A stretch of 64,000 nt of DNA from Calditrichia bacterium (GCA_963765585.1 CAVXXB010000003.1:38025-102024); one strand, 5' to 3'; positions 3,547 to 64,000 are shown, numbered from the stretch's first letter. Made by a program: numbers and translations. The notes: a model not told the origin generated them from the letters alone.

Positions 3547-3576
3547 GGATTGATCCTCACTTTAAATGATTCAAGA

Positions 3577-3625
3577 TACTGGGTACTGGGTACTGGGTAC
3601 TGGGTACTGGGTACTGGGTACTGGA
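3577..3625. repeat. Perfect heptanucleotide tandem array (TACTGGG)x7, ~30 bp upstream of the SDR start codon
   Basis: Read directly: tactgggtactggg... seven exact 7-nt units. Confidence 0.9.
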
Positions 3626-3784
3626 GTGTAAGCCTTCTCCAAACATATGTCAATACAAGTATCCCTATATCCTATTTTCCTCTTAACCTTCTGGCCTTCA
3701 TTATCAAGATAATAAATCATCAATAATTTGGCCAGCATCTGCATTTTGTATCCAGTGCCCAGTGGCGAGTACCAAGCGCCGAGG

Positions 3785-3833
3785 ATCCTGTATCCTGAAT
3801 CCTGCATCCTGTATCCTGCATCTTGCATCCTGA
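3785..3833. repeat. Heptanucleotide tandem array (ATCCTGN)x7 in the same divergent intergenic region
   Basis: atcctgt atcctga atcctgc atcctgt atcctgc atcttgc atcctga. It is preceded at 3759..3775 by a degenerate reverse-complement copy of the TACTGGG unit (cccagtggcgagtacc). Confidence 0.85.
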
Positions 3834-4038
3834 ACTTAACAAATTCCCTACATATATTGACATATCATAAGTATTTAAATGCATTTTTTATCAATTTGAT
3901 TTCGTTATTTTATAATTTTAGCCGAAGATGGAAATATAGTATCGTGAAATTTATTGTAACCAATTGATATAAAAGGGAGTTATCTTGACTTCATGGTGCT
4001 ATTTTAATACATTTTTAGTTATTTAGTTTTTAAAGTCT

Positions 4039-5181: not shown

Positions 5182-5709
5182 ATGGCTAAGGCAAGTTTAA
5201 AAATACAATTACCATATTTTAAAAAGGTTCTTTTATTTAAAGATCTGTTTGATGAGCAGATATCTGAGCTTATTGAGGTGATGAATACCCGGATGTATGC
5301 GGAGGGAGACTGGCTGGCCAAAGAAGGTGCGCGTGAAGATTGGCTATTTATTCTTTTAAAGGGCGAAGTCGAAATTTCCAAAAGCCTGTTGATGCCCCTG
5401 TGGGAAAGCGCGGCACAACCGCAACAAAAATCACTGGTACGGCTTTCCGAAAAGGATTTTGCATTTTTCGGGGAGATGGCCCTGTTTGAGGATTTTCCGG
5501 AAAGATCTGCGTCAATCCGTGCGCTGAAACCATGTACGGTCGCCATCATTGAGAAAAAAGCCTTGATTAACATTTTGCGACAGAGACCTGAGATGGGAAC
5601 CATCATCTACAAGAATATTGCGACAGTTCTAACAAGAAGACTGGTTAAAGCAAACAAAGATACACTGAAACTGACTACTGCATTTAGTCTTGCCCTGGAA
5701 GGTGAATAA
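5182..5709 (+). CDS. Cyclic-nucleotide-binding (cNMP) domain protein
   Basis: CAP/PKA-type cNMP-binding fold signature (FGEMALFEDFPERSASIRALKPCTVAIIEKKAL). It lies 10 bp downstream of the K+ channel gene. Confidence 0.6.
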   Translation: MAKASLKIQLPYFKKVLLFKDLFDEQISELIEVMNTRMYAEGDWLAKEGAREDWLFILLKGEVEISKSLLMPLWESAAQPQQKSLVRLSEKDFAFFGEMALFEDFPERSASIRALKPCTVAIIEKKALINILRQRPEMGTIIYKNIATVLTRRLVKANKDTLKLTTAFSLALEGE

Positions 5710-12200: not shown

Positions 12201-13535
12201 ATGCATACCATATTCACCTGTTTCTTAAGACAATTTGTCAATTATTGGAATTCTCTTTATCTCCGAATCAAAATTGAAATCTTTGTACTTCTTATTATTT
12301 TTTATTCATTCATAAGCGAAAAGTTAGTTCATGTTTTTTCGGATCTTCTTACCCGTCCGAATATTACCGGGCTTGGGTTAAATAGTTTTAGCGGCCATGT
12401 AATCGCCCTATTGCTTTCCATATCTATGCCTTTTGTTTATTTTAAACTGCTGCCGCGCCAGGAAAGTTTGCGGGCACTCCGCATTCTTCCCCTGTCATCT
12501 AATCATGCACTGGCGGCCTTACTTGTCTATATCACCTGGTATGAGCTGATCTCTTTGATTATCAGCGGTCCGGTATTCATTGCCCTGTTAATAACATCAG
12601 GTCCCCTTCCGGTCAGTTATTACCTTTATCTGCTGATAGTTTTTCCGGTAACATCTCTATTGCTGTTACAATTCTTATTACGGAAATCAAAGAGCCGCAC
12701 GCTGGTTACTTTACTCTATTTTATTAGTCTTTCAATATATTTTAGTGTGCATTCATTTGTCTATTTACATTATGATTTTTATTTGATTATTGATATTTTT
12801 CTGTTCCCAGGGATATTGATCTTGCTTTATAATTTATTAAAGCCATTTGCCGATCATTGGGATCTGCCGTTAAGTATAATGCAAAGCAAAGAAGGCGTGG
12901 TACAGAAAGTAAAACATTCATTACAATATGCACAGATTCCAAAAATTGTTCCCGGCAAAATTCACCCTTTTCTTGCCCGTGAGATCCTGGGTCATATCAG
13001 AAATAAAAATTATTTGCGGATGAAGATCTTAAGTATAGTACTATTTTCAATTGTTCTGTTTTTTTTCGGAAATATCCGCCCGGATTTTATTGCCGTTATT
13101 TGTTTTATATTTTGCTGGTGGCACTACAGTCATCAGTTCAACAACAAATATGTTTTTTCAGAATCGCGGGATTTTTTGGTCAGTCTGCCGGTACAATATT
13201 ATCAAATTTGGTTTTCCAAATTTCTGACTGAGATTATCCTGCTTCTCCCCATACTGCTGATAAGTTTGCTGGCTCTTTTATTTTTTGGCGATTCGGGTCT
13301 GCATAGTATAGTAATATTTATGGCACTGGTAACATTTTCCGTTCTGCTACTATTCATTATTACAAACATACGTTTACTTTTTTTAGATAATGCCAGAATG
13401 GCGGGTTATGCCTATCATTTTCTGGTTATTTTCTCTTTGATAATGATCGGTAATTTTTATCTGGTCGGACCAATAGTTATTCTGGGACTATTAGTCTATT
13501 TATCATTTTTAAGCTATCGTCAATTTTCACGCTGA
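12201..13535 (+). CDS. Polytopic membrane protein (putative ABC-2-type permease partner)
   Basis: Very hydrophobic, with at least 10 predicted TM segments. It lies 8 bp upstream of an ABC ATP-binding protein. Confidence 0.5.
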   Translation: MHTIFTCFLRQFVNYWNSLYLRIKIEIFVLLIIFYSFISEKLVHVFSDLLTRPNITGLGLNSFSGHVIALLLSISMPFVYFKLLPRQESLRALRILPLSSNHALAALLVYITWYELISLIISGPVFIALLITSGPLPVSYYLYLLIVFPVTSLLLLQFLLRKSKSRTLVTLLYFISLSIYFSVHSFVYLHYDFYLIIDIFLFPGILILLYNLLKPFADHWDLPLSIMQSKEGVVQKVKHSLQYAQIPKIVPGKIHPFLAREILGHIRNKNYLRMKILSIVLFSIVLFFFGNIRPDFIAVICFIFCWWHYSHQFNNKYVFSESRDFLVSLPVQYYQIWFSKFLTEIILLLPILLISLLALLFFGDSGLHSIVIFMALVTFSVLLLFIITNIRLLFLDNARMAGYAYHFLVIFSLIMIGNFYLVGPIVILGLLVYLSFLSYRQFSR

Positions 13536-14418: not shown

Positions 14419-16008
14419 TTAATAATCACGATACACTGTTTTTCCTGCCAGAACGGTCATCTTATTTTTTATCTGATCAAGCCCTTCCTCACTCACATTA
14501 AAGATGTTATCACTGAGCACGATAAAGTCGCTCAGTTTTCCCGGGGCCAGCGTACCTTTTATATTTTCTTCATAGGATGCATACGCCGCTTCACGGGTAT
14601 ACGCATTCACCGCGGCTTCTGTGGTGATACACTGATGATTTTGCCATCTTGGCTCCGAAGGATCTGATTGATATCTTCGTCCAACGGCAGCCTGTATCCC
14701 TTTCAACGGATCCGGATCGGCAACCGGCATATCGGAGCCAAACACCACGCGGCAGCCGGATTGGAGCAAGCTATTTACCGGATACGTGTTTTGGGATCGT
14801 GTTCCCAGGTATTTCTCAGCAATCCGCACATCATCGGTAATATGCAGTGGCTGCATTGAGGCAATAATTTGTAACTGGGAAAATCTCGGGATATCTGTTT
14901 CCATAAGGATCTGGCTATGTTCAATCCGATGTCTTAGGGGAACAGGAGATTGGAAATCCTGTAATCTTTCAAACACGTTCAAAACTTTATGATTTGCCCG
15001 ATCACCGATTGCATGAATAGTTGCACTTAGTCCGTTTTCTGAACTGTGTTTTACCAAGTCATATAAATCTGATTCAGATAAAACACTAATCCCGTTATGA
15101 TCTAATCCGTCATAGTTCTCAAACATATCGGCAGTCTGCGACCCCAGAGAACCATCCATAAAATATTTTAAGCCGCCCATTCGGAACCATTCATCCCCAC
15201 TGCCACTTTGTACACCGGCCTCAATTAGTTTATCCATGTCAGCCACGGGCGGATGCACACATATTCTAAGTTGAAGATCCCCATTCATGTGCATCTGTTG
15301 AAATATCTTATGTTTATCCAACGTTTCGCAGCTATGGGCACCACTAACACCCAGACGATACAGATCCGGATATATTTTTTTCATACAGCGGTTTAATTGT
15401 TCGTAACTGCACAGATCAGAAATGCGGTCTACTAACTCACACACCTTTTCATAAACCAGTCCTGTTAGCTTTCCATTATTATCGCGGGCAAAGCGTCCGC
15501 CGGGTGGATCAACTGTATCATCATTAAAACCACATCGCACCAAAGCGAGACTGTTTAACCATTGGGTATGTCCGTCTTTATTATACAGAACAACCGGATG
15601 TTTTTGTGTGATCTCGTCCAGGTCAGTTCGATCCGGCCGACCTTCCGGCCAGATATTGGCATTCCATCCACCTCCAAGAATCCACTCCCCGGGATCAACT
15701 GAATCCGAGAATCTGGAAATCATATCAATTGCTTCTGCTTTTGAGTTACATTTATCCAGGCGCAGGCGTTCTTTATCCAGCGCGACTGCTGCGATATGTG
15801 AATGACAATCTGTGAAAGCCGGAAGGACAAACTGCTGGTTCAGATTAACGTACTCGGTCAGATAATCAGGTAAATTAATATCGGATTTTTTACCGCAGTG
15901 GATAATTCGGTTACCGTGGATTAATATGCTATCTGCAACAGGGTGGTTGTTCTGTAAGGTATGTATATTGCCGTTAAAAAATAGTTTGAATTTTTTAGAT
16001 TCGGACAT
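14419..16008 (-). CDS. Amidohydrolase-family metal-dependent hydrolase (amidohydrolase-3-like)
   Basis: HxH metal-binding motif (DCHSHIA) near the N-terminus and a typical C-terminal GSD motif (VVFGSDMPV). 529 aa. Confidence 0.8.
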   Translation of the reverse strand: MSESKKFKLFFNGNIHTLQNNHPVADSILIHGNRIIHCGKKSDINLPDYLTEYVNLNQQFVLPAFTDCHSHIAAVALDKERLRLDKCNSKAEAIDMISRFSDSVDPGEWILGGGWNANIWPEGRPDRTDLDEITQKHPVVLYNKDGHTQWLNSLALVRCGFNDDTVDPPGGRFARDNNGKLTGLVYEKVCELVDRISDLCSYEQLNRCMKKIYPDLYRLGVSGAHSCETLDKHKIFQQMHMNGDLQLRICVHPPVADMDKLIEAGVQSGSGDEWFRMGGLKYFMDGSLGSQTADMFENYDGLDHNGISVLSESDLYDLVKHSSENGLSATIHAIGDRANHKVLNVFERLQDFQSPVPLRHRIEHSQILMETDIPRFSQLQIIASMQPLHITDDVRIAEKYLGTRSQNTYPVNSLLQSGCRVVFGSDMPVADPDPLKGIQAAVGRRYQSDPSEPRWQNHQCITTEAAVNAYTREAAYASYEENIKGTLAPGKLSDFIVLSDNIFNVSEEGLDQIKNKMTVLAGKTVYRDY

Positions 16009-16041: not shown

Positions 16042-16359
16042 TCATTCAGAGGGCAATTCTTCAATTTTGTTTTCTTCTTCAACGATATAATGGAAATTTA
16101 ATTTCCCTTCCATCAACTCTTCCTGAGCAATAACCGTGGGATTTATTTCTTTTTCGTGTTCAATACCTTCAAAGAATTCACGGTCATAAACGTCCATATC
16201 CTGCTCATAACCCGATTCTTCCAGGATTTCTTTTTCCTTGCGTTTGGCAATTCGCTCGCCATTTATTTCACGGGCTCTTTTGGCAATAACCAGAACTGCT
16301 TCATAGACATTGTGGCTGGTACTTTCGAGTTGTTCCAAATCAACTGTTTGAATCGCCAT
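16042..16359 (-). CDS. rpoZ: DNA-directed RNA polymerase subunit omega
   Basis: VYEAVLVIAKRAREIN matches the RpoZ core (E. coli NRFDLVLVAARRARQM). It has an acidic C-terminal tail. The start could also be the upstream ATG at 16371. Confidence 0.55.
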   Translation of the reverse strand: MAIQTVDLEQLESTSHNVYEAVLVIAKRAREINGERIAKRKEKEILEESGYEQDMDVYDREFFEGIEHEKEINPTVIAQEELMEGKLNFHYIVEEENKIEELPSE

Positions 16360-16444
16360 GTAATCCTCCAAAAAAATTGTTAAAGCCTTGTAATTTAGTA
16401 ATAACTACATGGGAAGTCAATTTTATTCCGCATAACATGAGTAT

Positions 16445-32482: not shown

Positions 32483-32605
32483 GAATGAGGAGTGAGGAGT
32501 CAGAAATTAGAATATTTCAGATAGTGCTTTTTGCTCTGGAAACAAATATTAAATATTGATAACACAAAAGTTCATAGTATAAAATTCATACTTAACAACC
32601 CATTC

Positions 32606-35600
32606 ATGCCGAATAATAAAGACCTACATGATTTGTTTCAGCTCCGGGCGTTGAAAAGTGCCAAGGTTTCTGAAATTAGTGAGGCCACCGCCGCTTCTCC
32701 GGTTCCTGTTGCAGAACGAGTAAATTTACATATTGGGAATCCGGTTCAGGATGGACGCCTGGTTGATTTGTATTATCAGATGGTGACTGGAATTCAACCG
32801 GGGCCAAATCCGGAATTAGAATTATCAGGATGGGATACTGAGCATAAAGCGTGGCTAGAACTCATCAGAAATTCCATAAGAAAAAGTGTCCCCTATTTGC
32901 CACGCGGCGGGTATTTACGGTCTGATCCCGGAGATGTAATCACCTTTTTTAAAAGCTGGCTTACAAAGGATCAACCTGAACCACTGGAATATGATTTTGG
33001 TGAAAAATCGGGAAAAAGAGAATGTATAATCGCCAGCGGCGGCATTAACGAAGTTTTACGTGTTATACTGCATTCCATATCGGACTATCTGATTCACAAA
33101 CCGGCCCACATTATTTTTTCCGGGATTAAACCATCCGGGTGTCTAAAGACATTTAAGGCACTCCAATTGTCGTATCTTAATTTAAAAGAGGAGCATCAGC
33201 TAAAAATATTATCCGGTTACTTCAATGCCAAAAACGATGAAGTCGTTTACCTGATCCTCGGACATCACATATCTGAATTAATGCGTCGTGAAATCCGGCA
33301 AATATGCCTGCAACACCCATTGATGGTAATCGAAGCAAACGATACACCAAACCACCTTTCCCTGGCCCGTGAAGCAAAAATGCGTGATCGGGTAATTCGT
33401 ATTTTGTCTCCTGCTACGATAATTCCCAATAAGACGAGACTACCGATTTCTTTTATTGCCGGAAATGCTGACTATTTGCGTGTATTCGAAAATGTACATT
33501 TTGAATTAAAGGGTACCCCGCCTGCCGCGGAGGTCGAACTCCTGTCATTTCTGATAAACAATAAAGAGGCTCCGGAAACTCTGCCGTTACCCGATGCCAC
33601 AGGTGAAGAATCGGGATATTACACAACAATGGACCGGAATCTGGCGAACTCCGTGAAGTTACATGAACGCATAGGATTGCAGTACACCGATCGAACTGCC
33701 ACAATTGAGAAAATCAGCAATAAATATTTTAGCAGAACAGACAGAATACGTGACCGTTTTTTAAAAAAGTACCCGGCATCTTTACGGGCTGATGATCCCT
33801 ACGCAAATCAGGAATCGTCTCAGGTCTTAGCCGAGTTTTTGACCGATATCCGGACAAATACAAATCTGAACCAAATTTATGAGTCATTTCTGTCCGCCTT
33901 TATTACCCATCATCCACAATATGATTTCGACAAATGCTTTGTATCAAGCGGCTCCTCACGAACCGCACTGAGTCTTCTGGGTTTTCAATGTGGCATTAAA
34001 ACGGCCATTGTGCCTGATCTGAGCTGGACATATCACCACTGCTTCCCGGAAGTAAAAACTGTTCCCCTGACAGAAGATCTGATGCTCGATGAACAGTCTG
34101 TTTTAGACCAGGTCCGGGATGTATCGAACTCGTCGTCATCCGGTCAGTTGGCATTAGTGCTTAATAATCCTCACAATGCCAGCGGCAAAATTTTTGATGA
34201 ATCTGTACTGAAAAATTTATTAATAAAACTACTTACGCAGAAAATATTTGTGATTGACGATTTGTCATATGAGAATGTAGCACCGGCAAAAAACCTGAGG
34301 GGACCCAAAACATTGAAGCAGATCGCCCTCGATCTGCGGAAAACAGGTGTTCTCAATGATCTGGATTTGCAATACCTGATCAGCGTTCACTCACTTTCAA
34401 AGACTGATTGTTTTGCCGGGGGCAGACTATCGGTTATTGAAATTTTACATCCCGGATTACACAGCGAGTATAGCGAAATTAACAATAATATCGTGCCAAA
34501 CTACATGGCAATATTTCTGGCGTATATGTTCTACCGCAACCCGCCAGATCAGGTACGGACCTTCTGGACTTTACGCAATGAGATCATGGATGAACGCATG
34601 AGAGCGCTCGAGCAGGCAGAAAATGAACTGCCGGCAGACCGTAACCTGTTCAATATCAAAATTATCCGTCCTATGGGCAGCATGTATCCACATCTGATTG
34701 TCACAGATCTTCCTAAAGGTATATCTCTGGATTGGCTGGCATCCGGGTTGGCACGTCGTGGTATTGGACTGGTTCCGCTTACCACATTTAGCCGCACCGG
34801 AAAAGGATATGAACTGGCCAGAAAAACCTTTCGATTAACTCTGGGAGGTAGTTCAGATCATGAAGAACTATTCCGGAAGACTCGACGAGTATTAATCGAT
34901 CTGAATCGTCTGATCAAAGAGGAATCAACCAGATATAATTTAAATCTCTTTCCGCTGCGTAAATTAAAATATCGCCCGGAGAAATATTTTCCGGAAGCTA
35001 TTAGCATGTGGAATGATATTACAGATAAAGTAATTGTCGACGCGCAATTACTGTTTGAAAAAAAATGCCGGCAAATACCAGCCCTGTCCGGTGACGATTC
35101 ACTGGCCAAAAAATTTAGCACTGATTATTTACCATCCCGTCTGGAGATTCTTAAAACCAGGTTGGATGATCAGATAAACATTAAATCTGCATTCTTGTCG
35201 GAGATATCAGAGAATCCGCATCATCAGATCGAAGCCCTCTTAAAACAGGAACTATATAAAGAAAATATTGAAATTCGTGCGGAGAATTTTCGTCACCGGA
35301 TGTTTGACAGAACGGTACATCCCACACAAAATTACGCATTAAAAGTTGATTTGACAGCAAACCTGTTATTTGAGGCTATTCTTAGCGGGCAACTTCCGGA
35401 CCGGCAGACAATTGGTCATCTCATATCTGAATTAGTAGCCGAATACCTGGGTCTTAATGTTCCCATTCGCGCAGTGGAAGAAGGAAATGAACTGGTCATG
35501 GATCTAAAGGCCGTATTATTGGCCGAGGAACATACCCGCTGGAATTCCATGGAATCCGTTACGCCATACTTGCTTTCCTTCTGGGGCGACTGGGATGGCA

Positions 35601-38017
35601 GTACAAGACCATCCGGACAGGGACATCTTCTGGTTTCTGCTGTTTTACTTGAAAATGTTCGCCAACTGTCTGAGCTGGTAAAGTCTTTAAACAAAAACTC
35701 ACCGGAAGTCCATATCCCGGCAGACATATTAGCCGAAATTCAAAATCTGGATTCACGAACCATAAAATTCTGGAAATTGTTTCATCGCATCAATATTTTG
35801 ACCAATCAACTGGAAAAACGATATCGCAGCGTCTTACCCCACAATTTTAGTAGTTCTAAGCTGAGAAAGATTGCATCACGTTTTAAAGTGGTCCGGGATC
35901 CTATCAGGGCGTTATGGCAACATAATGACCGTCTTGAAAAAAAGATGCTTGATCTGCGCAAGCAACGCCATGATTCTATGGAATATTATTTTGCCCTAAA
36001 TAAACGTCTGCGTAAACTCTTATTTGAAAATATATCCTTATTCGGTGCATCATTCCATAATCCCCGATTTGCAATAAAAGCCGGACTATACCGCAGTCCA
36101 TTACGACGATTCAATCTAACACCCCGGATCCATCAGAATATGATCACATCAACAGATCAGTTCGCGATCGACACCACAGTTCATAACATGATGGAAATAA
36201 ATGAAATCTCCGGGAAATACGGAAATCCGGGAATGATTCAGGCGTTACAAATTAGTATGTCAGACCGGCCCGAGGCATTAATCGCACTCGACCAGAAGAT
36301 CCGATCTTACCGGGAAAATTTATTACGCGAGCACCCGGATCTTCAGGTGCCAAATATTTGGCTCATTCCCCTGTTTGAGGATGTCGAAACGGTACAAGGT
36401 TTAGGAAAATATCTGGACCGGTTATGGGAATACAGTATTGCCAGTAGAAGAATCGATCAGGATACGGCTGACCGGTTTGCTGAAATGATTTGTGAAATTT
36501 TCATTGCCGGCTCTGACCTGAGTCAGCAAGTGGGTCAATCAACTGCTGCATTTTTATTTAAAGATGCCAAATTGAAAACCATACAATGGTTAGCTGAAAA
36601 GGGTCTTAGCGACAGAGTTCGTATCAAACTTGGCAGCGGTGAACCGATGCAACGCCAGGGTGGCTATTATAAATCGGCACTAACCAGAAATCCATTTATA
36701 AATAGCCGCAATTCACGGATACGCATGACACAAAATTTGAGTCCGGCCGCACAAAAGAGCACCGAATATGCCAAGAGCCCCTTGCAGGGTATTATGTCCA
36801 CCGGTGATTTAAGAACATTTCAGAGTCGTGTTTTTGAAAAAATAAAATTTATTCCAACGGCAGAGCGAGCACGCCTGCTGCATCATATAATGAAAGCACA
36901 GGAATTCTATCAGAACGAACTTTTCCGGATAAGCGAACCATTTCTTGAAACACGACTGGCCTTCGAAGAGAGAGGATTTCAGGAACTGGAGCGATTATCA
37001 TTTGGACAACGAGATCCTATTTATTCAGATTTCACGGATCTGGTGACGCAAAATTTCCGCCGAATATTGTATGGCAGCGATGATGATGTAGTGGGTATTC
37101 ATGTTATCTCATATTTTATTTCACGGACCACACCAGCGCTTCGCGACCGTCCAACGGTAAGACCTACCCGGGAAGTGACCTCTGACCGTGGACAGAGAAT
37201 TATTCAGCGTATTGCCCAGACATTACCCATGTCACGTCATGGCACGCTATTAAGGGCTATCGGACATAATCGTGCCCAGACTCTCATTCTTGGTATAAAT
37301 CAGCTAACTACGGGCTTATTTCGTGCCCTTGATGAATTTGCAGCTACGCAAAGCACCTATGAAGATGGCTTGGCTTTGATAAATGACAGAATTTTACCAA
37401 ATCTTCCCGTTCAGGAAATATTGCATAGCCTGCGAATTTATCACGAACCAAGCCATACATATCTGAAGAAAATGGCACGGGGGTTTCCTGCAGAAAATTC
37501 TGCGTTTCTCTATCTACGCGAAGAATTGGATAGTATGAATAAATATATCGGGATTTTTCAGAAAGAATTTCTGAGACGTCACGGTCTGAATATAAATGAA
37601 TTCTTCGATGGCAATATGTTCAAGCCTGATCTGTTACCCACAATCAGACCATCTCTGGCCGTTTTACTTCAACCTGATCTCTTTAATACATCCGAAGAAA
37701 AACTGATTGAACAAATTAGTGGAAAAGTCGACAGTGACTGGAACGAGGAAATTCGTCCGCTTCTGGAATTGCCATTAGCCATACAAAACTGGCGTCAACA
37801 GACATGGGAATTAATTGAGAAGCCCATTTTTACACAGGTGAAAAGTTTTGTTGAATTGGCCCACGCACTTAATACACTAACTGCCGGACAATCGCAAAAG
37901 GATGCCGGTCTGGCGATCAACCCGTCAAAGATGTTAAGAATGAGTTCAAATATTACCTCCCTGCTATCGGGTGTACGTGATGATTCGATGCGTCAATTCC
38001 TTAGCCTCTGTGGTTGA
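32606..38017 (+). CDS. Giant multidomain protein: class-I aminotransferase-fold (PLP) domain fused to a divergent phosphoenolpyruvate-carboxylase-like domain
   Basis: Aminotransferase motifs sit at canonical spacing: NNPHNASG (cf. NPxNPTG), IDDLSYE ~30 aa later, SLSK (the Schiff-base Lys) ~45 aa later, then GGRLS (cf. GxRxG). PEPC-like motifs sit at E. coli-like spacing: TVHPTQ (TAHPTE); ~363 aa later IPLFEDVETV (VPLFETIEDL); ~37 aa later IAGSDLSQQVG (GYSDSAKDAG); ~42 aa later GSGEPMQRQGG (GRGGSIGRGG). The protein ends in Gly, as PEPC does. The track ORF starts at a TTG at 32531; the first ATG is 32606. Confidence 0.6.
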   Translation: MPNNKDLHDLFQLRALKSAKVSEISEATAASPVPVAERVNLHIGNPVQDGRLVDLYYQMVTGIQPGPNPELELSGWDTEHKAWLELIRNSIRKSVPYLPRGGYLRSDPGDVITFFKSWLTKDQPEPLEYDFGEKSGKRECIIASGGINEVLRVILHSISDYLIHKPAHIIFSGIKPSGCLKTFKALQLSYLNLKEEHQLKILSGYFNAKNDEVVYLILGHHISELMRREIRQICLQHPLMVIEANDTPNHLSLAREAKMRDRVIRILSPATIIPNKTRLPISFIAGNADYLRVFENVHFELKGTPPAAEVELLSFLINNKEAPETLPLPDATGEESGYYTTMDRNLANSVKLHERIGLQYTDRTATIEKISNKYFSRTDRIRDRFLKKYPASLRADDPYANQESSQVLAEFLTDIRTNTNLNQIYESFLSAFITHHPQYDFDKCFVSSGSSRTALSLLGFQCGIKTAIVPDLSWTYHHCFPEVKTVPLTEDLMLDEQSVLDQVRDVSNSSSSGQLALVLNNPHNASGKIFDESVLKNLLIKLLTQKIFVIDDLSYENVAPAKNLRGPKTLKQIALDLRKTGVLNDLDLQYLISVHSLSKTDCFAGGRLSVIEILHPGLHSEYSEINNNIVPNYMAIFLAYMFYRNPPDQVRTFWTLRNEIMDERMRALEQAENELPADRNLFNIKIIRPMGSMYPHLIVTDLPKGISLDWLASGLARRGIGLVPLTTFSRTGKGYELARKTFRLTLGGSSDHEELFRKTRRVLIDLNRLIKEESTRYNLNLFPLRKLKYRPEKYFPEAISMWNDITDKVIVDAQLLFEKKCRQIPALSGDDSLAKKFSTDYLPSRLEILKTRLDDQINIKSAFLSEISENPHHQIEALLKQELYKENIEIRAENFRHRMFDRTVHPTQNYALKVDLTANLLFEAILSGQLPDRQTIGHLISELVAEYLGLNVPIRAVEEGNELVMDLKAVLLAEEHTRWNSMESVTPYLLSFWGDWDGSTRPSGQGHLLVSAVLLENVRQLSELVKSLNKNSPEVHIPADILAEIQNLDSRTIKFWKLFHRINILTNQLEKRYRSVLPHNFSSSKLRKIASRFKVVRDPIRALWQHNDRLEKKMLDLRKQRHDSMEYYFALNKRLRKLLFENISLFGASFHNPRFAIKAGLYRSPLRRFNLTPRIHQNMITSTDQFAIDTTVHNMMEINEISGKYGNPGMIQALQISMSDRPEALIALDQKIRSYRENLLREHPDLQVPNIWLIPLFEDVETVQGLGKYLDRLWEYSIASRRIDQDTADRFAEMICEIFIAGSDLSQQVGQSTAAFLFKDAKLKTIQWLAEKGLSDRVRIKLGSGEPMQRQGGYYKSALTRNPFINSRNSRIRMTQNLSPAAQKSTEYAKSPLQGIMSTGDLRTFQSRVFEKIKFIPTAERARLLHHIMKAQEFYQNELFRISEPFLETRLAFEERGFQELERLSFGQRDPIYSDFTDLVTQNFRRILYGSDDDVVGIHVISYFISRTTPALRDRPTVRPTREVTSDRGQRIIQRIAQTLPMSRHGTLLRAIGHNRAQTLILGINQLTTGLFRALDEFAATQSTYEDGLALINDRILPNLPVQEILHSLRIYHEPSHTYLKKMARGFPAENSAFLYLREELDSMNKYIGIFQKEFLRRHGLNINEFFDGNMFKPDLLPTIRPSLAVLLQPDLFNTSEEKLIEQISGKVDSDWNEEIRPLLELPLAIQNWRQQTWELIEKPIFTQVKSFVELAHALNTLTAGQSQKDAGLAINPSKMLRMSSNITSLLSGVRDDSMRQFLSLCG

Positions 38018-39873: not shown

Positions 39874-41457
39874 TCATAATGCTTTAATTGCTTCCATAAT
39901 AGCTTCTTTGGTAAGACCAAAATGCTCCCACACTTCATAATGACCTTCAGAAGGAGCGATTCTTGGATCTGTGATACCAACATGCGCCATGGGTGTGTCA
40001 AATTGATTTCCATATCCGGCTACAAGATTGGCAAAACCACGCAAACCGGTTGTCGTTGTTCCGATTAAACCGTCTTCGATTGTAACAACTCCCTTTGAAT
40101 ATTTTTTAATCGTTGTTTCAATAAAATTTTCAGGTAACGGTAAACCATTAATAATAATCACATCCGTCGGTAAACCATCAGTGTTTAATTCCTCTGCCGC
40201 ATCTGCAGCCAAATGGGCCGGCGCACCCAGGGCCAAAATCACACGTCGTGCATTCGGGTATGTGCGAAAGATGGTTACCGGATTCCATTCCTGATCTTTT
40301 TTCCACAACGCTTCAGAACCACCTTGCTGACTGAGTACCGGCAAATTATCCCTCGGTATGCCAATAATATGAGCGCCATAAAATTCGGCCGCATCTTTTA
40401 CAGCCAAAAAGGCCGCACACGCATCAGCCGGGGCATAAAAGCGATGCAAATATGGAAGATAACCAATTGCCAGCGTAATCCAATCCAGACTCCATCCGGA
40501 AAAATGGTCCCGTCCTGTACACGCACCCACATGAGAAAGGTGAAATGTAACATTCAAACCTTCATTTATACCATTCAAATTTCGCTGATATCGCCACATT
40601 TCAAATCCTTCGCGGGCAATACCTTCATAAAAAGCGGCAAAAGTGGAAAACACATTAAACTGTGGCCCATGGCTGGCCACTGCCAATCCATTTGCCATTA
40701 AAGCCGATGCCTGTTCCTCAATACTCATTTCAAACTGATGATTTTCATCAAGATACGTACGCGCTTTATCCAGTTTGGTAGATGGATCCAGATCACAACT
40801 GACAATAAACACAGATTCAGGATGCGATTGTGCCACGGCTGCATAGGCTGACTGAACACCCGCCCGGGGGCTGACTTTACTGTCTACCTCAGGTAAATTT
40901 ACACTACCAAGTATTTCTGGGTTGATAACCAGATTTTTTGTTCCTGGAGCAGAACGGGCGGTGGTAACAACCTCCAGTTTATCTGATTCTTCCAGCGACT
41001 TAAGAGCAGTCTTTTGATCGTCAGACATCTGGAGCATTGGATTATTGAGCACCGCCTGTAAATCACGTCCCTGCATATGACCGTCATGATGTCCTTTACC
41101 CCCACTGAGACCATTGACAAGAAATACACATTCGAGCATTGATTGCACATCACCAAAACTCATCAAGGCGCCTGGAATCCAGATTTCTGTATCCATCTTA
41201 ATTTGATTTTTCCCGGCAAGCTCAGCGACCTCAGCGGAAATACCATATTTTTCCCCGAGAACGTTTAAATCAACTTTTTCCTTAGAACCCGAAGAATATC
41301 CGGCTGGATAAATCAGACTCGGCCGACCCGATTGTGCCATTTTAAATGCTTCTTTATATGCCTTAAACAATCCCGCTTTATCATGAATGCTTTCTATCTC
41401 CAGAATTGAAATTCCCAGCGATTCGATAATAGGACGTGGATCTTTATCCATGATCAT
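39874..41457 (-). CDS. Transketolase-like protein, C-terminal portion (rest of the ThDP/PP domain, plus Pyr and C-terminal domains)
   Basis: IESIHDKAGLFKAYKEAFKMAQSGRPSLIYPAGYSSGS aligns with the TK segment DGHD..ai..Ai.eAk..dkPtlI.ckT.IGfGsP. HVGACTGRDHFSGWSL and GAHIIGIPRDNLPVL align with the Pyr domain. Start taken at ATG 41457 (MIMDKD...), 1 nt after the upstream stop. Confidence 0.65.
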   Translation of the reverse strand: MIMDKDPRPIIESLGISILEIESIHDKAGLFKAYKEAFKMAQSGRPSLIYPAGYSSGSKEKVDLNVLGEKYGISAEVAELAGKNQIKMDTEIWIPGALMSFGDVQSMLECVFLVNGLSGGKGHHDGHMQGRDLQAVLNNPMLQMSDDQKTALKSLEESDKLEVVTTARSAPGTKNLVINPEILGSVNLPEVDSKVSPRAGVQSAYAAVAQSHPESVFIVSCDLDPSTKLDKARTYLDENHQFEMSIEEQASALMANGLAVASHGPQFNVFSTFAAFYEGIAREGFEMWRYQRNLNGINEGLNVTFHLSHVGACTGRDHFSGWSLDWITLAIGYLPYLHRFYAPADACAAFLAVKDAAEFYGAHIIGIPRDNLPVLSQQGGSEALWKKDQEWNPVTIFRTYPNARRVILALGAPAHLAADAAEELNTDGLPTDVIIINGLPLPENFIETTIKKYSKGVVTIEDGLIGTTTTGLRGFANLVAGYGNQFDTPMAHVGITDPRIAPSEGHYEVWEHFGLTKEAIMEAIKAL

Positions 41458-41458
41458 C

Positions 41459-42067
41459 TTATTTGATCCGCTGAAGCTGGATACCATTACGATGCATAAT
41501 AAAAGTGATCGGAGCACCATGCAAATCCGCCCCATTAAAGCCATTCAACGCCTGACCGGATATCCAACCCGCATCGCCACAATGGGTAACAACCCAGGCA
41601 TCCTGTCCGTAAATGGCCTTTTTCCCCAGGGCTTGTCCTGCGGCGGCAGGAACCATCACACCAAGACGCCCACCATTTAACTGCGTACCTCCCGGGACCC
41701 AGGCCACATGGCCGGCAATATCCAATCCCTGGCGAAAATTTTGTATCACATATTCCGGATCCAGATAACCGTATGCCGCAAGTGTGCCATAGTATCCAAT
41801 ACTGGTATGGGCGTTTTCAATCGTATATTCTTTTTTCTCAAAATCGACTACGGCAAGTGTTAGCGCCAGAGCAGAAATTAAATCCAACCCGCCACCCATA
41901 TGATCCACTTCTTTTAATTTGGCCAGTTCCGAGACTGCTTTCACTGAAGTCCGGTCGGCATTAATTTCTAATGCACGCAGGGTATTAACCTGCATCCGCA
42001 GATAAATCATCCACTTTGGTAATATCGATTTTAAAGGGTAAGTACATGCTCGAAATAAGTTTTTCAC
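41459..42067 (-). CDS. Transketolase-like protein, N-terminal portion (ThDP-binding region ending just after the GDG-x27-N motif)
   Basis: NFRQGLDIAGHVAWVPG (cf. FRQ..SkTPGHPE) and HCGDAGWISGQALNGFNGADLHGAPITFIMHRNGIQL (cf. GDGcLMEGiSHEA...DDNgISIDG). It ends in TAA, immediately followed by g-ATG of the next ORF. Confidence 0.65.
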   Translation of the reverse strand: MKNLFRACTYPLKSILPKWMIYLRMQVNTLRALEINADRTSVKAVSELAKLKEVDHMGGGLDLISALALTLAVVDFEKKEYTIENAHTSIGYYGTLAAYGYLDPEYVIQNFRQGLDIAGHVAWVPGGTQLNGGRLGVMVPAAAGQALGKKAIYGQDAWVVTHCGDAGWISGQALNGFNGADLHGAPITFIMHRNGIQLQRIK

Positions 42068-46266: not shown

Positions 46267-47856
46267 TTAAAACGCGAAAACCGTCTGAATATTCGTAGTC
46301 CGGATAGTCTCATCCGGCCCACTGATTAGTCCATCTCCATTAAGATCTTTATAGGTTTCACGATAATCCAGTACCAGCGCAGCGCCTCCTGCAATTTCAT
46401 AATGCAGTCTCGCGCCGAGAATCGTTCCTTCGGTTTTATTGAAGAGATCGTCTGCATTTTGCTGATAAAAATAAGCGCCTGCTTTCTTAATTTTCGGTAC
46501 AAAGGAAGTATTCAGATCAAGATCCATCCGCAGGGTATTTACCTTAATGCCGTTTCCCGACATTCTTTGATAATCGGCACCAAATATCATTACATTCCAT
46601 AAATTGAAATCAGCACCGGCCACATATCCCTGCAGTCGCGTATCAATCATATGCAACTGCTCACGTTTTGTGATGGTATACAGATCCCCGGCTCCGGTTG
46701 AATCTACAACAGAAACGCGATCCAGCTCATAGGTAGTACTAAAATATTCCGGAGCAAAGCGCTCTTCCTGAATCCGGTGCTCGGCAAAGAAGTTCATAAA
46801 TCCTACTTTACCGCGAACGCCGGGAAGAGTATAACCCCAGCCACCGCCATAACCAAACTTTGCCGCCTGTGCATATGCAGTCAGCTCAAAGGTCTTATTC
46901 TGAATAAACGGATAACCGATATCAGCAGCAAATGCAATCTGTTCTTTATTGGGAGCCTGGTCAATCGTCATCGGTATTGGTTTTAAAAGGCCTTCATTAA
47001 AAAAGAGGTCATTATTTTGAATAAAGGGATTTTGGCTATTATCTGTATAGCCGTTGCCGTCACGATCGGGATCCCAGTAATCTGCTACACCATTGCCATC
47101 ACTATCAACGGCCTGACGCCCGGTTCCCGGTGTATCGGGAAAATCATCCAGTGCATCCGGAATACCATCTCCATCCCGGTCTCTCAACGTGGCATACTGA
47201 TTGCGATCATAAACAACGCTGGCTCCCAATTCCAGTTTACCTAAAAATCTATAACCAACCCGTCCGGCAAATAAGCCACCTTTTTTACGTCCCAACTCAT
47301 TAAAATCATTCATCATGATGTCGGCTACAAAGCCGCCGGTGTCTATTCCAATGGTCATACCGGTACGAATTACACTGGGGTATTGTATCGTATTGCAATA
47401 GCGGTTCATTAAAATACCATATCCCAGTCGGTAGTTATTTATCGCGCCAACGCGGGCATAAAACGGATCCCCTTTGTGTGCCCAGCGGATGTAATATATC
47501 TTCTCAAGAATATCATTGGCAGAATCCCAGTTATCTGTACGGATATTGCCATTTTCATCAATAAAAATACGCAGATCCAGAGCGATACCAAACTTTCCGG
47601 CGGAGAACTCCGGCATGAAACTGATTTGTGTATGAATTTTATCATCAATGGTCACCGCACCAACTGAAAAGCCAAATCCAAACGGTGCATCGCCCTCTTT
47701 TGGAAAGGGCAGGTACTCATCTTGCTCAGATTCCTGTTTTGCATCAGAGGTTTTTTCATCTTCCTGATTTAAACCCGGAAGTAGTGCAGAACCTGAAGAC
47801 TGGCCGAAACCGGAAACAACTAAAAGCACTAAACTAAGGATGATTAAATATCGCAT
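46267..47856 (-). CDS. Outer-membrane beta-barrel protein with thrombospondin-type-3 (Ca2+-binding) Asp-rich repeats
   Basis: Signal peptide. DRDGDGIPDALDDFPD...DSDGNGVADYWDPDRDGNGYTDN are TSP3-like repeats. It ends ...TVFAF with a C-terminal aromatic residue, as in an OM barrel. Confidence 0.7.
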   Translation of the reverse strand: MRYLIILSLVLLVVSGFGQSSGSALLPGLNQEDEKTSDAKQESEQDEYLPFPKEGDAPFGFGFSVGAVTIDDKIHTQISFMPEFSAGKFGIALDLRIFIDENGNIRTDNWDSANDILEKIYYIRWAHKGDPFYARVGAINNYRLGYGILMNRYCNTIQYPSVIRTGMTIGIDTGGFVADIMMNDFNELGRKKGGLFAGRVGYRFLGKLELGASVVYDRNQYATLRDRDGDGIPDALDDFPDTPGTGRQAVDSDGNGVADYWDPDRDGNGYTDNSQNPFIQNNDLFFNEGLLKPIPMTIDQAPNKEQIAFAADIGYPFIQNKTFELTAYAQAAKFGYGGGWGYTLPGVRGKVGFMNFFAEHRIQEERFAPEYFSTTYELDRVSVVDSTGAGDLYTITKREQLHMIDTRLQGYVAGADFNLWNVMIFGADYQRMSGNGIKVNTLRMDLDLNTSFVPKIKKAGAYFYQQNADDLFNKTEGTILGARLHYEIAGGAALVLDYRETYKDLNGDGLISGPDETIRTTNIQTVFAF

Positions 47857-52985: not shown

Positions 52986-54314
52986 TTAATGAAGGTAAGA
53001 GCGTGCGTTACCGGGAAAGACGTATTCAAGATTTATGAGTCGCCAGCCATAGAGCGTCGGTTTTATACTGGCATCAATTATCATTCCTGCAAGCATGGTA
53101 TTATTAAAAGGAATTGAAATCTGTACATTCTTATATTTGTCTTTGAGAAAATGATCGTGTAACCGGGTTAATCCATTCGCGTGGACTTCTTCCACAATAA
53201 ATAATGAACTGACGACCTTGGCTTCAGGATCATTTGAGACCAAAACTCCGTCGATCATAGAATTATTATTAAAATAACCCCTGGTAATCAAAATTGAGTT
53301 TTTAAATTCCTGGAAATATTTATGGATGATATCCTGGAAATGATGATTGAGGTTTATTTCTCTGGTAAGATCAAGCCATTTAAAAAACCGGCTCATTGTA
53401 TCTTCAACCATATCGGGTTGTACATCCATTTCCAACACAATTTCACGGATTAACCAGAAGATAAAAAATTCTTCCAGATCTTCATATGTTATTTCATCCA
53501 GGCGATCGATACCGGCATACTCTTCCAGATATGTATGAAATAATCTTAAAATAAGTGAATCATGTTCGGAATTGTTGGTAGTAGCATCAGACTGATCCAA
53601 AAATTCGTCTATCAGATTTGCAATTTGATACTCACCGAGTTTCCACATCTCAGTATCATCCATATCATCATCAAACTGGTATTGAAACAGGTCGTCCCAA
53701 TCTTCTTGTGAATCCTGTATCAGTTTCTCAAACAGTCCCGAGGCAGATTCTTTGGGATTATGTAAAAATTGCTGACCATGTGCTTCGATAAATATTTCCA
53801 CAATAGATGTAATAAAATCAGCAAATTGCATCAATCCGATATCTGTATCCTCCAGATCGATACCCATTTCATAATTATAGAAATCAAAGAGAGTGTCCAA
53901 AACAACATAATTTAAAATGTCCGTAAGAAAAAATTGTTTTTTCTTAAGTTCTTCGGTCTGTGCGAATTGAAGTAGCGGAAAGTGCGGGGAATCCAGTTTA
54001 ATTTCCTGAGGATTCATCTTTTCATTGAGTTTTGTCGGACACGCCAGGGAACAATCACCGAAGCAATTATTCTCCAGGAATGACTCAAAACTATCCCCGA
54101 TATTAAACGCCAGGGTACCTATATCTTCGGACTCAATCTGTAAATAACCTATCAATTGCTTCTTATTCAGATAACTCGTTTCAATCTGATTACCAAGAAA
54201 ATTGATCATTAAATATGAAAAATAATCCAGATTGGAAAGTTCATATAATTCCTTTTCCCAGGATGATATAAACTCTTGAATAGATATGTATGTTTTCTCG
54301 GATCTCTGAGACAA
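52986..54314 (-). CDS. Hypothetical acidic protein (442 aa)
   Basis: Long ORF rich in D/E, with a CFGDCSLACP motif. No family recognised. Confidence 0.45.
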   Translation of the reverse strand: MSQRSEKTYISIQEFISSWEKELYELSNLDYFSYLMINFLGNQIETSYLNKKQLIGYLQIESEDIGTLAFNIGDSFESFLENNCFGDCSLACPTKLNEKMNPQEIKLDSPHFPLLQFAQTEELKKKQFFLTDILNYVVLDTLFDFYNYEMGIDLEDTDIGLMQFADFITSIVEIFIEAHGQQFLHNPKESASGLFEKLIQDSQEDWDDLFQYQFDDDMDDTEMWKLGEYQIANLIDEFLDQSDATTNNSEHDSLILRLFHTYLEEYAGIDRLDEITYEDLEEFFIFWLIREIVLEMDVQPDMVEDTMSRFFKWLDLTREINLNHHFQDIIHKYFQEFKNSILITRGYFNNNSMIDGVLVSNDPEAKVVSSLFIVEEVHANGLTRLHDHFLKDKYKNVQISIPFNNTMLAGMIIDASIKPTLYGWRLINLEYVFPGNARSYLH

Positions 54315-61974: not shown

Positions 61975-63252
61975 TCAAATTATTGTCCCATGCGGTATTA
62001 CAGCGCCTTTTGGTACAATAATAATTCCATCCCGTATAGCATAATTATCCTGAAATGTTTCTGTTATCTGCTCACGATTAATCAACTGAACATTATCCCC
62101 CACCCTGACATCCAGATCCAGAATGGCATTTTTAATATAACAATTGGCCCCTATACCCAGATTGGGACGCCCTTTTTCCCGGTTCGTATTATGCTCGGCT
62201 ATTGTTTCATACTTTGCATTACCCATCACAATCGAGCCCTGAACGTGAGAACCATGATCAATATATGACCTGATTCCGATCACAGAATGTTCAATTTTCG
62301 ACTGCAGGATGATCGATCCTTCAGCAAGAATGGAATCGATAATATGACAGTCATTAATCTTCGTAGCCGGTAAAAATCTGGGACGTGTATAAAAACGATG
62401 TTCTTCATCGTAAAAATTAAAATCCGGTACGGGTTTGGTCAGATCCATATGTGCTTTTAAGAAGCTGCTGATACTACCGATATCCTGCCAATAATCATCA
62501 AAGAAATATGCAGAACAGTTAAGTGTTTTAAGTGCGTCCGGGATAATTTCACGGCCAAAATCCTGTTTATTATTATTCTCAAGTGCATCAAACAGGACCT
62601 GCTTCTTGAAAATGTAAATGCCCATGGAGGCTAAATGAGTGCGGTTTCCGGACTCAATATCGAAGTTCTTAAAAAGTTGTTTAGAAACCCGAAACTTATC
62701 CAGTATTTTCTGGTCTTTTGGCTTTTCATAAAATGCTGTGATTTTACCGTCCCGATTGGCTTTTAGTATACCGAACTCTCCCGCTTCATTTTCGTGAATT
62801 GGTTTTACGGCAATTGAGATATCCGAATCTGTCCGCAGGTGATAGTCAAAAAATTTACGGTAATCCATGCGATAAAGATGATCGCCTGACAAAATAATAA
62901 TATGGTCATCAATGTTCCGGAAGAAAAGCAGGTTTTTACGCACCGCATCGGCCGTACCCTGATACCAGTCCATAATCTCTGCTGTTTGTTGTGCTGCCAA
63001 TATTCTGATATAACCGCCTGAGAAACTGTCAAAACGGTAGGTGAGATGAATGTGGCGATGTAGTGATTCGGAATTGAATTGTGTCAGGATAAATATATGA
63101 TTGATATCCGAGTGCAGGCAATTGCTGATTGGGATATCAATTAAGCGAAACTTTCCGGCAATCGGAACTGCTGGTTTTGCGCGCATTTTTGTCAAGGGTT
63201 GAAGACGAGAACCTTGTCCACCACCAAGTATCAAAGCAGATAATCGGACCAT
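61975..63252 (-). CDS. glgC: Glucose-1-phosphate adenylyltransferase
   Basis: LILGGGQGSRLQPLTKMRAKPAVPIAGKFRLIDIPISN is the GlgC N-terminal signature. It has a left-handed beta-helix C-terminus. 425 aa. Confidence 0.9.
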   Translation of the reverse strand: MVRLSALILGGGQGSRLQPLTKMRAKPAVPIAGKFRLIDIPISNCLHSDINHIFILTQFNSESLHRHIHLTYRFDSFSGGYIRILAAQQTAEIMDWYQGTADAVRKNLLFFRNIDDHIIILSGDHLYRMDYRKFFDYHLRTDSDISIAVKPIHENEAGEFGILKANRDGKITAFYEKPKDQKILDKFRVSKQLFKNFDIESGNRTHLASMGIYIFKKQVLFDALENNNKQDFGREIIPDALKTLNCSAYFFDDYWQDIGSISSFLKAHMDLTKPVPDFNFYDEEHRFYTRPRFLPATKINDCHIIDSILAEGSIILQSKIEHSVIGIRSYIDHGSHVQGSIVMGNAKYETIAEHNTNREKGRPNLGIGANCYIKNAILDLDVRVGDNVQLINREQITETFQDNYAIRDGIIIVPKGAVIPHGTII

Positions 63253-63360
63253 TTTTTTCCTCAGTAAATTTAGTTACACAAAGGACACGAAGAGGGCACG
63301 GAGAGCACCAAGATTTCTAATGTCAGGTTCCCAATACCCAATTACTAATTACAATAACAT

Positions 63361-63702
63361 CTATTTAATAAATTTTTCTATCGCTTGTTCATCAAAACCA
63401 ACATGGTACTTACCATTATTTTCAATTAACGGACGTTTGATCATGGATTGTTCATTTAAAAGATTATCAAATTTTTCCTTTTCACTCATCTGATCAAAGT
63501 TCAGATGCAACCGGCGGTAGGTGGTACCTTTCTTATTAAAAACGGTATCCATACCAAGATTTGCAATAATTTTTGTTAAATGACCTTCAGATATGGGGGT
63601 TTTACGTACATTTATAAATTCATAAGCAACCTGCTTATCATCAAGAATTTTAATTGTATTCCTGATTTTACTTCAATTTGGAATTCCATAAAGTCTTAGC
63701 AT
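63361..63702 (-). CDS. ArsC/YffB-family (Spx/ArsC thioredoxin-fold) protein with in-frame TGA at the catalytic-Cys position (candidate selenoprotein)
   Basis: ATG at 63702..63700 with an AAGGA RBS. Reading through the TGA at 63675..63673 gives MLRLYGIPN-U-SKIRNTIKILDDKQVAYEFINVRK...KKGTTYRRL...IKRPLI...GFDEQAIEKF. E. coli YffB is LYGIKNCDTIKKARRWLE...TRGTTWRKL...IKRPLL...GFSDSSYQQF, and ArsC is HNPACGTSRNT. The TGA codon aligns exactly with the family's active-site Cys. The track shows only the post-TGA ORF (63361..63552). Confidence 0.55.
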
Positions 63703-63798
63703 AAATTTTTCCTTCTCTTATCAAAGGTAGTGTAAAAAATAACCACAGAGTACACGGAGTTTTACTCGCTACTTAGCACTCGGTGCTCGGTTCTCGTC

Positions 63799-64000
63799 TT
63801 AATCAAGGGCATGAATCGAAGCGGCGACCACATTTGCCACCAGACTGCGCAGACGAACGACACTGGCCGAGTCATCCGGATGTACCCTGTTGGTTAGCAG
63901 AATCACTGCCGTTTGCGTCATGGGATCGATCCACATGGATGTCCCGGTATATCCTGTATGACCGTAAGATCCATATTGAAAAAGATCGCCACCATTGGAC
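63799..64000 (-). CDS. Serine hydrolase of the beta-lactamase/transpeptidase-like family (5'-partial, C-terminal end only)
   Basis: The reverse-strand frame is open to the window edge and ends in a TAA at 63801..63799. Translation reads ...SYGHTGYTGTSMWIDPMTQTAVILLTNRVHPDDSASVVRLRSLVANVVAASIHALD. The GHTG(F/Y)TGT...W(I/V)DP...LLTNR block is typical of the C-terminus of AmpC/EstB-like serine hydrolases. Confidence 0.5.
   Translation of the reverse strand, partial: SNGGDLFQYGSYGHTGYTGTSMWIDPMTQTAVILLTNRVHPDDSASVVRLRSLVANVVAASIHALD

Follow-up and report, generated by a model that had tools for sequence, protein, structure and literature searches.

A candidate ArsC/YffB-like selenoprotein with a displaced SECIS-like hairpin in a Calditrichia bacterium

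ArsC-like selenoproteins and the gene in the window

ArsC-like selenoproteins have been known since 2005-2008 (PMC1794560, PMC2398784). They were reported in Deltaproteobacteria (PMC1794560), and ocean metagenomes contained both ArsC 1 (pfam03960, with a UxxS motif, 77 sequences) and ArsC 2 (cd03032, with a UxxC motif, 42 sequences) (PMC2398784). A 2026 review of selenoproteins places the ArsC-like members under TIGR00014 (UxxS) and NF041106 (UxxC), and contains no TIGR01617, Spx or YffB entry (PMC13188914). The signal expected downstream of the UGA is described by the bSECIS model, which has a loop of 3-9 nt, an upper stem of 4-16 bp and a UGA-to-loop distance of 16-37 nt. The model also asks for a G at loop position 1 or 2, with G or U as the next base, and for a minimum free energy (MFE) of -7.5 kcal/mol or lower (PMC13188914).

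The gene described here lies in a 64-kb stretch of DNA from a Calditrichia bacterium, which was analysed over its whole length and is referred to as the window (G+C about 41%). It is an arsC/Spx/YffB-family gene on the minus strand (63702..63361), a frame of 114 codons which comprises 113 residues and a stop, with Sec proposed at residue 10. The sole internal stop is a TGA at codon 10 (63675..63673, minus strand), read here as a Sec codon, and the frame terminates with TAG. The translation begins with MLRLYGIPN, passes the TGA into SKIRNT, continues through GTTYRRL and IKRPLI, and ends in VGFDEQAIEKFIK before the final stop; written out in full, it is MLRLYGIPN, the TGA, SKIRNTIKILDDKQVAYEFINVRKTPISEGHLTKIIANLGMDTVFNKKGTTYRRLHLNFDQMSEKEKFDNLLNEQSMIKRPLIENNGKYHVGFDEQAIEKFIK and the stop. 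A Shine-Dalgarno-like GAAGGA, read from the sequence, is found at 63715..63710 (minus strand), 7 nt 5' of the ATG at 63702. Re-reading of the frame thus agreed with the initial sequence-only reading, which had proposed a 114-codon minus-strand frame with a ribosome-binding site, this ATG and no interruption other than the TGA. The ribosome-binding site, the start codon and all residues invariant in the family are preserved. Standard ORF finding returns the 63-codon tail only (63552..63361), and the public gene call for the locus (P0025) is a 63-aa fragment.

The family assignment was made by profile scoring with Cys entered at codon 10. The window protein belongs to PF03960 (Pfam ArsC), which it matches over the full profile (1-79) with 77.2 bits against a cut-off of 24 (E 1.2e-21). 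Among the NCBIfam models tested, TIGR01617 (arsC_related, the Spx/MgsR/YffB subfamily) is alone in being above cut-off, with 98.2 bits against 75.05. For comparison, a Sec form from a metagenome, L044, scores 91.3 bits with the same model. These scores bear out the earlier placement in the ArsC/YffB family, which had rested on the active-site context and on the GTTYRRL, IKRPLI and GF...F blocks. NF008107 (the YffB equivalog, "ArsC family reductase") gives 73.4 bits against 121, and by that criterion the window protein is therefore not a YffB orthologue. NF041106 (ArsC_rel_Se_1, UxxC) gives 25.5 bits against 85, the motif in the window being UxxI, and the Spx models NF002459, NF009885 and NF009210 are all below cut-off. 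The CXXC redox switch of Spx is likewise absent, the window having U-S-K-I and its relatives C/U-x-x-I. With TIGR00014 (glutaredoxin-dependent arsenate reductase ArsC) the score is 56.5 bits against 106.05; judged by this profile, arsenate reductase activity is not to be assigned to the window protein.

The best solved relative is YffB of Pseudomonas aeruginosa (PA3664, PDB 1rw1; E 1.1e-14, aligned residues 4-107), and in this alignment the TGA column is the conserved Cys of 1rw1. Structures of R773 ArsC align to query residues 3-93 only, and the coordinate offset of the match puts the TGA at residue 12 of 1i9d, which we take to be the catalytic Cys. PDB entries of Spx are matched with E values of 1e-8 to 1e-11. 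Moreover, when 37 homologues are aligned, the TGA falls on the Cys of GIPNC(N/S)KIR, which is nearly invariant. The suggestion of a TGA at the catalytic-Cys position was thus upheld. The window protein is therefore very probably a single-nucleophile (monothiol-type) ArsC/YffB-like protein of the thioredoxin fold, with the motif U-S-K-I-R-N-T in which Sec is predicted.

Genes in the window follow the order beta-lactamase-family, arsC-like, glgC, class-III aminotransferase, homocysteine S-methyltransferase, ABC exporter and M19 dipeptidase. A 264-kb contig (L002/L003) from a Calditrichia MAG is arranged collinearly; it is also the nearest match in the genome collection (61% identity), followed by Calditrichaceae and then by Balneolaceae at about 42-45%. 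Homology and synteny thus point to an uncultured lineage related to Calditrichia. The downstream neighbour, glgC (61975..63252, minus strand; Pfam NTP_transferase and LbH_GLGC), encodes glucose-1-phosphate adenylyltransferase, and glgC is also found 3' of the arsC-like gene in L002, L044, L055, L056, L058, L059 and L060. Upstream, the 3' end of a beta-lactamase-family (serine hydrolase) gene (63799..64000, minus strand) runs off the window; its identity comes from synteny, its counterparts in L002, L055, L058 and L059 matching PF00144. The arrangement of beta-lactamase-family gene, arsC-like gene and glgC is conserved among both Cys and Sec forms, L054 being the exception. It occupies 61975..64000 (minus strand) in the window, 8743..11580 in L002, 4332..7325 in L055, 195..3249 in L058, 96..3108 in L059, 4826..6399 in L056 and 569..2093 in L060. 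That the position between these two genes is kept hints at a housekeeping redox role, and a link to glycogen metabolism or synthesis is possible as a speculation.

Other observations concern the remainder of the window and its nearest relative. An 1828-codon ORF (32531..38017, plus strand) has no Pfam match at E <= 1e-5, and further sizeable ORFs without a family lie at 5690..7534, 12201..13535, 46267..47856 and 52986..54314. Two minus-strand ORFs, 39874..41544 and 41459..42067, overlap by 86 nt; the former contains a transketolase pyrimidine-binding domain only, and the latter (202 aa) has no Pfam match. They could represent two subunits, or one TPP-enzyme gene that is split or frameshifted. 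No convincing case emerged from scans for further TGA-interrupted ORFs in the window. One 108-codon ORF (16045..16371, minus strand) terminates at a TGA and shares its frame with an amidohydrolase gene that starts 11 codons on (14419..16008, minus strand); it is probably a separate small gene, and Cys homologues provide no evidence for Sec there. In L002, lytB/ispH (3079..4281, plus strand) is called as two ORFs with an in-frame TGA between them. A second selenoprotein was considered and rejected here, since the alternate frame at the split reads NDRYGAQNIDDH, presumably IspH-like, which points to a frameshift and probably to an assembly indel.

Codon 10 among homologues

The full-length homologues retrieved in the first protein search carry Cys within GIPNC(N/S)KIR(N/K)T. 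The matches listed by a scan of the genome collection, among which the window's own genome did not appear, are Cys forms, with TGT or TGC at this codon in all 29 homologues examined (L003-L031), and the syntenic gene of L002 has TGT. In a larger alignment of homologues, the Sec/Cys column contains 72 C, 10 TGA and 6 W. The window gene thus shows the Sec/Cys pairing by which bacterial selenoproteins are recognized.

Further TGA forms came from metagenomes and from protein searches. A metagenome search with a TGA-specific degenerate pattern gave 18 matches, of which 17 were due to chance and one, L044, was a true orthologue. Its sequence around the TGA is MLKLYGIPN-TGA-SKIRNT, so that the U-S-K-I-R-N-T context is identical to that of the window, and it shares 58% identity with the window protein. 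The frame of L044 is intact, and glgC comes next. Protein searches seeded with L044 and then with L053 returned about 20 truncated gene calls of 63-100 aa, and every one of these for which DNA was retrieved has a TGA at codon 10 or its equivalent, the frame of 113-117 codons being intact apart from it. Nine TGA lineages besides the window were recognized in this way, namely L044 (with L051 and L052), L053, L054, L055, L056 (with L057), L058, L059, L060 and L061; L054 and L059 belong to the assemblies GCA_024278755.1 and GCA_029935835.1. The nine lineages are about 45-60% identical, mostly syntenic and intact in frame, and their motifs, together with that of the window, are USKI, UQQI, UNQI and UGQI. 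Alignment of orthologues, which had been proposed as a check, thus recovered TGA in nine other lineages as well as Cys in 29/29 homologues examined from the genome collection.

Some database proteins have W at the Sec column (P0122, P0123, P0188, P0226, P0229, P0230, P0245 and P0248, eight in all). They are full-length and sit inside TGA clades. Most likely they represent this TGA too, translated to Trp where gene callers applied code 4 or 25 to short contigs. The family is therefore systematically mis-annotated, being called either as fragments of 63-100 residues or with Trp at the active site.

In a weakly resolved neighbour-joining tree of 113 residues, Sec forms make up several groups, with Cys forms scattered among them. 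One all-TGA clade contains L044, L056 and L061 together with W entries, and another contains L054, L055 and L059 with P0188. L053 pairs with L060 and L058 stands alone, both adjoining Cys forms. The nearest clade of the window consists of P0001-P0006 (65-69% identity), which are all Cys, and the window is its sole TGA form.

The UGA is thus conserved in diverged orthologues whose frames are intact. Since the TGA is kept across lineages of 45-60% identity along with every invariant residue, pseudogenes cannot explain it at the level of the family. Judged from these comparisons, the family is a selenoprotein family, and the nine other lineages indicate that selection maintains a TGA at this position.

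Hairpins downstream of the UGA and the explanations weighed

All nine Sec forms other than the window have a hairpin of 5-7 bp which begins 12-16 nt 3' of the UGA. The loops are (A)GGU(C/U), GUC or CG(U/G)GC and lie 18-22 nt from the UGA, and both loops and spacing fit the published bSECIS pattern. Two types can be distinguished. Type A, AAAA(C/G)C - AGGUC / AGGUU / CGUGC / CGGGC - G(G/C)UUUU, occurs in L053, L054, L055, L058, L059 and L060, and type B, CCAAAA - GUC - UUUUGG, in L044, L056 and L061. The hairpins are A/U-rich and weak, with -2.2 to -4.8 kcal/mol each. They arise from residues and codons that go with the Sec forms, such as K-T-R-S-V (AAA ACC AGG UCG GUU) where Cys forms have K-T-K-A-L. 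A hairpin of this kind is absent from all five Cys forms of Calditrichia, and 22 of 24 more distant Cys forms also lack it. Under a uniform rule (at least 5 bp of stem, a loop of the form [N]G[G/U]... and a distance of 10-50 nt from the codon), 10/10 Sec forms pass, including the window at 40 nt, against 2/29 Cys forms; the sequences share kinship, and hence no formal P value is attached to these counts.

RNAfold also pairs the codons of (K/Q)-I-R (AAAUUCG) with those of Y-E-F (CGAAUUU) about 45 nt downstream, at approximately nt 6-16 and 52-62 after the Sec/Cys codon, in L053-L061, L003 and L007. As this pairing is found in Sec forms and in some Cys forms, it seems to be a by-product of conserved residues and not a part of the SECIS.

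In the window, the sequence-only reading had described two weak hairpins after the UGA, neither of them a textbook bSECIS. Both are found by RNAfold, with the first starting 6 nt after the UGA and not 9 nt as stated. Hairpin 1 (63666..63640, minus strand; AUCAGGAAU-ACAAUUAAA-AUUCUUGAU) has 9 bp, one of them G-U, and a 9-nt loop without G. It occupies the place of the SECIS hairpin of the relatives and was tried as the SelB-binding element, but this was rejected because its loop, ACAAUUAAA, lacks the G of the always G[G/U]-containing loops of the relatives. Hairpin 2 (63638..63622, minus strand; AUAAGC-AGGUU-GCUUAU), the putative SelB-binding SECIS, was found both by RNAfold, in the form AUAAGC(A)/GGU/(U)GCUUAU, and by a covariance model (R1, below). 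It begins 34 nt after the UGA and one nt beyond hairpin 1. Its loop (AGGUU or GGU) and its stem of 6-7 bp are those of a bSECIS, in which respect the earlier judgement was too severe; it was apt for hairpin 1, which has no G in the loop, and for the position of hairpin 2, whose loop lies 40-41 nt 3' of the UGA and so exceeds the 16-37 nt to which all nine relatives conform. The 61 nt that contain both hairpins have an MFE of -13.1 kcal/mol (z = -2.85; 4 of 200 shuffles were as good), and hairpin 2 by itself has -4.5 kcal/mol. It is encoded by K-Q-V-A-Y, whereas the closest Cys relatives have K-D/N-I-E-Y and are unable to encode the hairpin. Relative to the other Sec forms the shift is 22 nt, which is not a multiple of three, and hairpin 2 is therefore formed from different codons in a different phase.

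The covariance model R1 was built from the six type A hairpins (L053, L054, L055, L058, L059 and L060), with the window left out. As types A and B did not yield a structural alignment with MAFFT, R1 represents type A only and is blind to CCAAAA-GUC-UUUUGG. When the whole 64-kb window was searched on both strands (128 kb) with filters off, the top match was 63638..63622 on the minus strand, that is hairpin 2, with 19.9 bits (E 0.0023); the runner-up, located elsewhere, had 15.8 bits. A search of both strands of 599 kb from other loci (about 1.2 Mb) gave two non-training matches of 19.9 bits or more, and no match beside Cys-form genes. The chance of a 19.9-bit match within 100 nt after the UGA is estimated at about 2e-4, a figure to be read with the fact that the resemblance of hairpin 2 to the hairpins of the relatives had been noticed before R1 was built. 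When the window is added to the R1 alignment, which is small and fitted to R1, 36/36 pair cells are standard, and compensatory changes are seen at two of the six pairs (2 and 5), in one case with U-A for A-U in the window and in the other with a 3:3 split between C-G and G-C. No SECIS family of Rfam was matched in the whole window at gathering thresholds, nor in 63300..63800 at E <= 10, where the matches were chance snoRNA and miRNA matches only.

Taken together, the window gene very likely encodes a 113-residue ArsC/YffB-like protein with Sec as its N-terminal active-site nucleophile. In the proposed mechanism, a ribosome would arrive at the UGA of codon 10, SelB-GTP-Sec-tRNA(Sec) would bind the AGGUU-loop hairpin (63638..63622) and deliver Sec with no termination, and Sec10 would serve as the conserved Cys does in YffB and ArsC. 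Since U-S-K-I has no CXXC partner, a resolving thiol would need to be external. We infer a dependence on SelB and the presence of the Sec machinery, a functional hairpin 2 at 40 nt from the UGA, and a substrate and a redox partner for the protein.

A recent pseudogene, producing only a 9-residue peptide, is an unlikely explanation of the locus, whether it arose by a TGY-to-TGA nonsense mutation in a Cys-form gene or is a Sec form stranded by loss of the machinery. It would account for a window gene that has Cys in all of its nearest relatives (P0001-P0006), as TGT or TGC is one base away from TGA and a recent stop at codon 10 would leave no other trace. The 40-nt spacing of hairpin 2, outside 16-37 nt (PMC13188914), speaks for it as well. 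Counting against the selenoprotein, the 64-kb window contains no sel genes and no tRNA: ARAGORN detected neither tRNA nor tRNA-Sec there or in 16 related loci, and Pfam scans found no SelA, SelB or SelD among the 39 large ORFs of the window. The hairpin itself is difficult to reconcile with a pseudogene, because the best R1 match of 128 kb lies on the right strand just 3' of the TGA, against a background of about two matches in 1.2 Mb of strand, and because it is formed from the lineage-specific residues Q-V-A, so that the match would have to be a coincidence. Moreover, U-S-K-I-R-N-T is the same as in the Sec form L044, the invariant residues, ribosome-binding site and ATG are intact, and the TGA is maintained at the site in nine other lineages. 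Close relatives with Cys combined with additional disruptions of the locus had been named beforehand as grounds for giving up the selenoprotein; the close relatives do have Cys, but no further disruption is present.

A sequencing or assembly error at a codon that is really TGT or TGC would likewise require one base, and is extremely unlikely because a second assembly has the same TGA: the Logan assembly of run ERR11523668 (L001) differs from the gene by one synonymous base, this run possibly being the data behind the genome itself. Furthermore, TGA is found at this codon in independent assemblies from many samples. The W seen at the site in several database entries would suit a UGA decoded in another way, either by genome-wide reassignment of TGA to Trp or Gly (code 4/25) or by local near-cognate read-through, and this too is very unlikely. 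The 39 large ORFs of the window stop at TAA (18), TAG (12) and TGA (9), and long ORFs, reaching as many as 1828 codons, have no in-frame TGA; as TGA ends 9 of the 39, the standard code is used in this genome. Trp or Gly in place of a conserved redox Cys would also abolish the chemistry, and the TGA is accompanied by a hairpin linked to Sec forms. The selenoprotein first proposed as a candidate is thus supported by the nine TGA lineages, by the hairpin in 9/9 of them, and by an R1 search whose top match is hairpin 2.

How Sec would be inserted at the larger spacing is a separate matter. Hairpin 1 starts 6 nt 3' of the UGA, and by the geometry of ribosome and mRNA this is roughly the location of structures that stimulate frameshifting, with the recoded codon in the A site. 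Hairpin 1 may shorten the effective distance to hairpin 2 or pause the ribosome at the UGA. An unusual SECIS can tentatively be envisaged, although we consider it rather doubtful, in which the AGGUU hairpin was moved 22 nt downstream and the spacer hairpin restores the distance or pauses the ribosome in the manner of a frameshift stimulator; being out of codon phase with the hairpins of the relatives, hairpin 2 would have re-evolved rather than shifted. If this were true, the 16-37 nt rule of selenoprotein finders would miss a class of two-hairpin signals, and the locus would record either the relocation of a SECIS or an independent gain of Sec from Cys inside a Cys clade. The displaced hairpin of the window lends itself to testing how far the spacing rule of the bacterial SECIS applies.

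Comparison with known systems

The Sec forms imply the use of selenocysteine in Calditrichia-like bacteria, for which the literature searched contained no relevant report on selenocysteine or selenoproteins in Caldithrix or Calditrich*. Comprising 10 or more Sec lineages, Sec and Cys forms interspersed and a defined small SECIS, this compact family offers material for studies of Sec/Cys interconversion.

Compared with the YffB protein of 1rw1, the window protein has the same single N-terminal Cys position in LYGI(K)xC..., a similar length of about 114 residues, and the GTT(F/Y)R and MIKRP blocks; it differs in having Sec for Cys and in scoring under the cut-off of NF008107. To our knowledge, the function of YffB has not been established. 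With the RNA polymerase-binding redox regulators Spx and MgsR it shares the TIGR01617 subfamily and the fold. Spx possesses a CXXC switch, whereas the +3 residue in the window is Ile, and an intramolecular disulfide or selenylsulfide of the Spx type is therefore not possible.

The SECIS loop of E. coli fdhF is of the GGUC type, and the loop of hairpin 2 resembles it. The likeness to fdhF and to bSECIS elements extends to the small loop with G followed by G or U, the stem of 6-7 bp and the position within the coding sequence 3' of the UGA. In contrast to the bSECIS model, the window has a spacing of 40-41 nt, greater than 37, and its SelB-type hairpin is separated from the UGA by an additional hairpin of 9 bp. 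This displaced two-hairpin signal is the sole part of the locus with some novelty.

The closest counterparts remain the ArsC-like selenoproteins. As in these, the window protein belongs to PF03960, has Sec for the N-terminal active-site Cys and a thioredoxin-like fold, and the Cys homologues far outnumber the Sec forms. It differs in its U-x-x-I motif, theirs being UxxS or UxxC, and in its Calditrichia-like lineage. Because the TIGR00014 and NF041106 scores are below cut-off and TIGR01617 has no entry in the review, the family is a new member, and arguably a new subfamily, of a known selenoprotein class. The very probable selenoprotein would thus be a genuine but unsurprising addition, the ArsC-like class being established, and the current understanding of that class stands.
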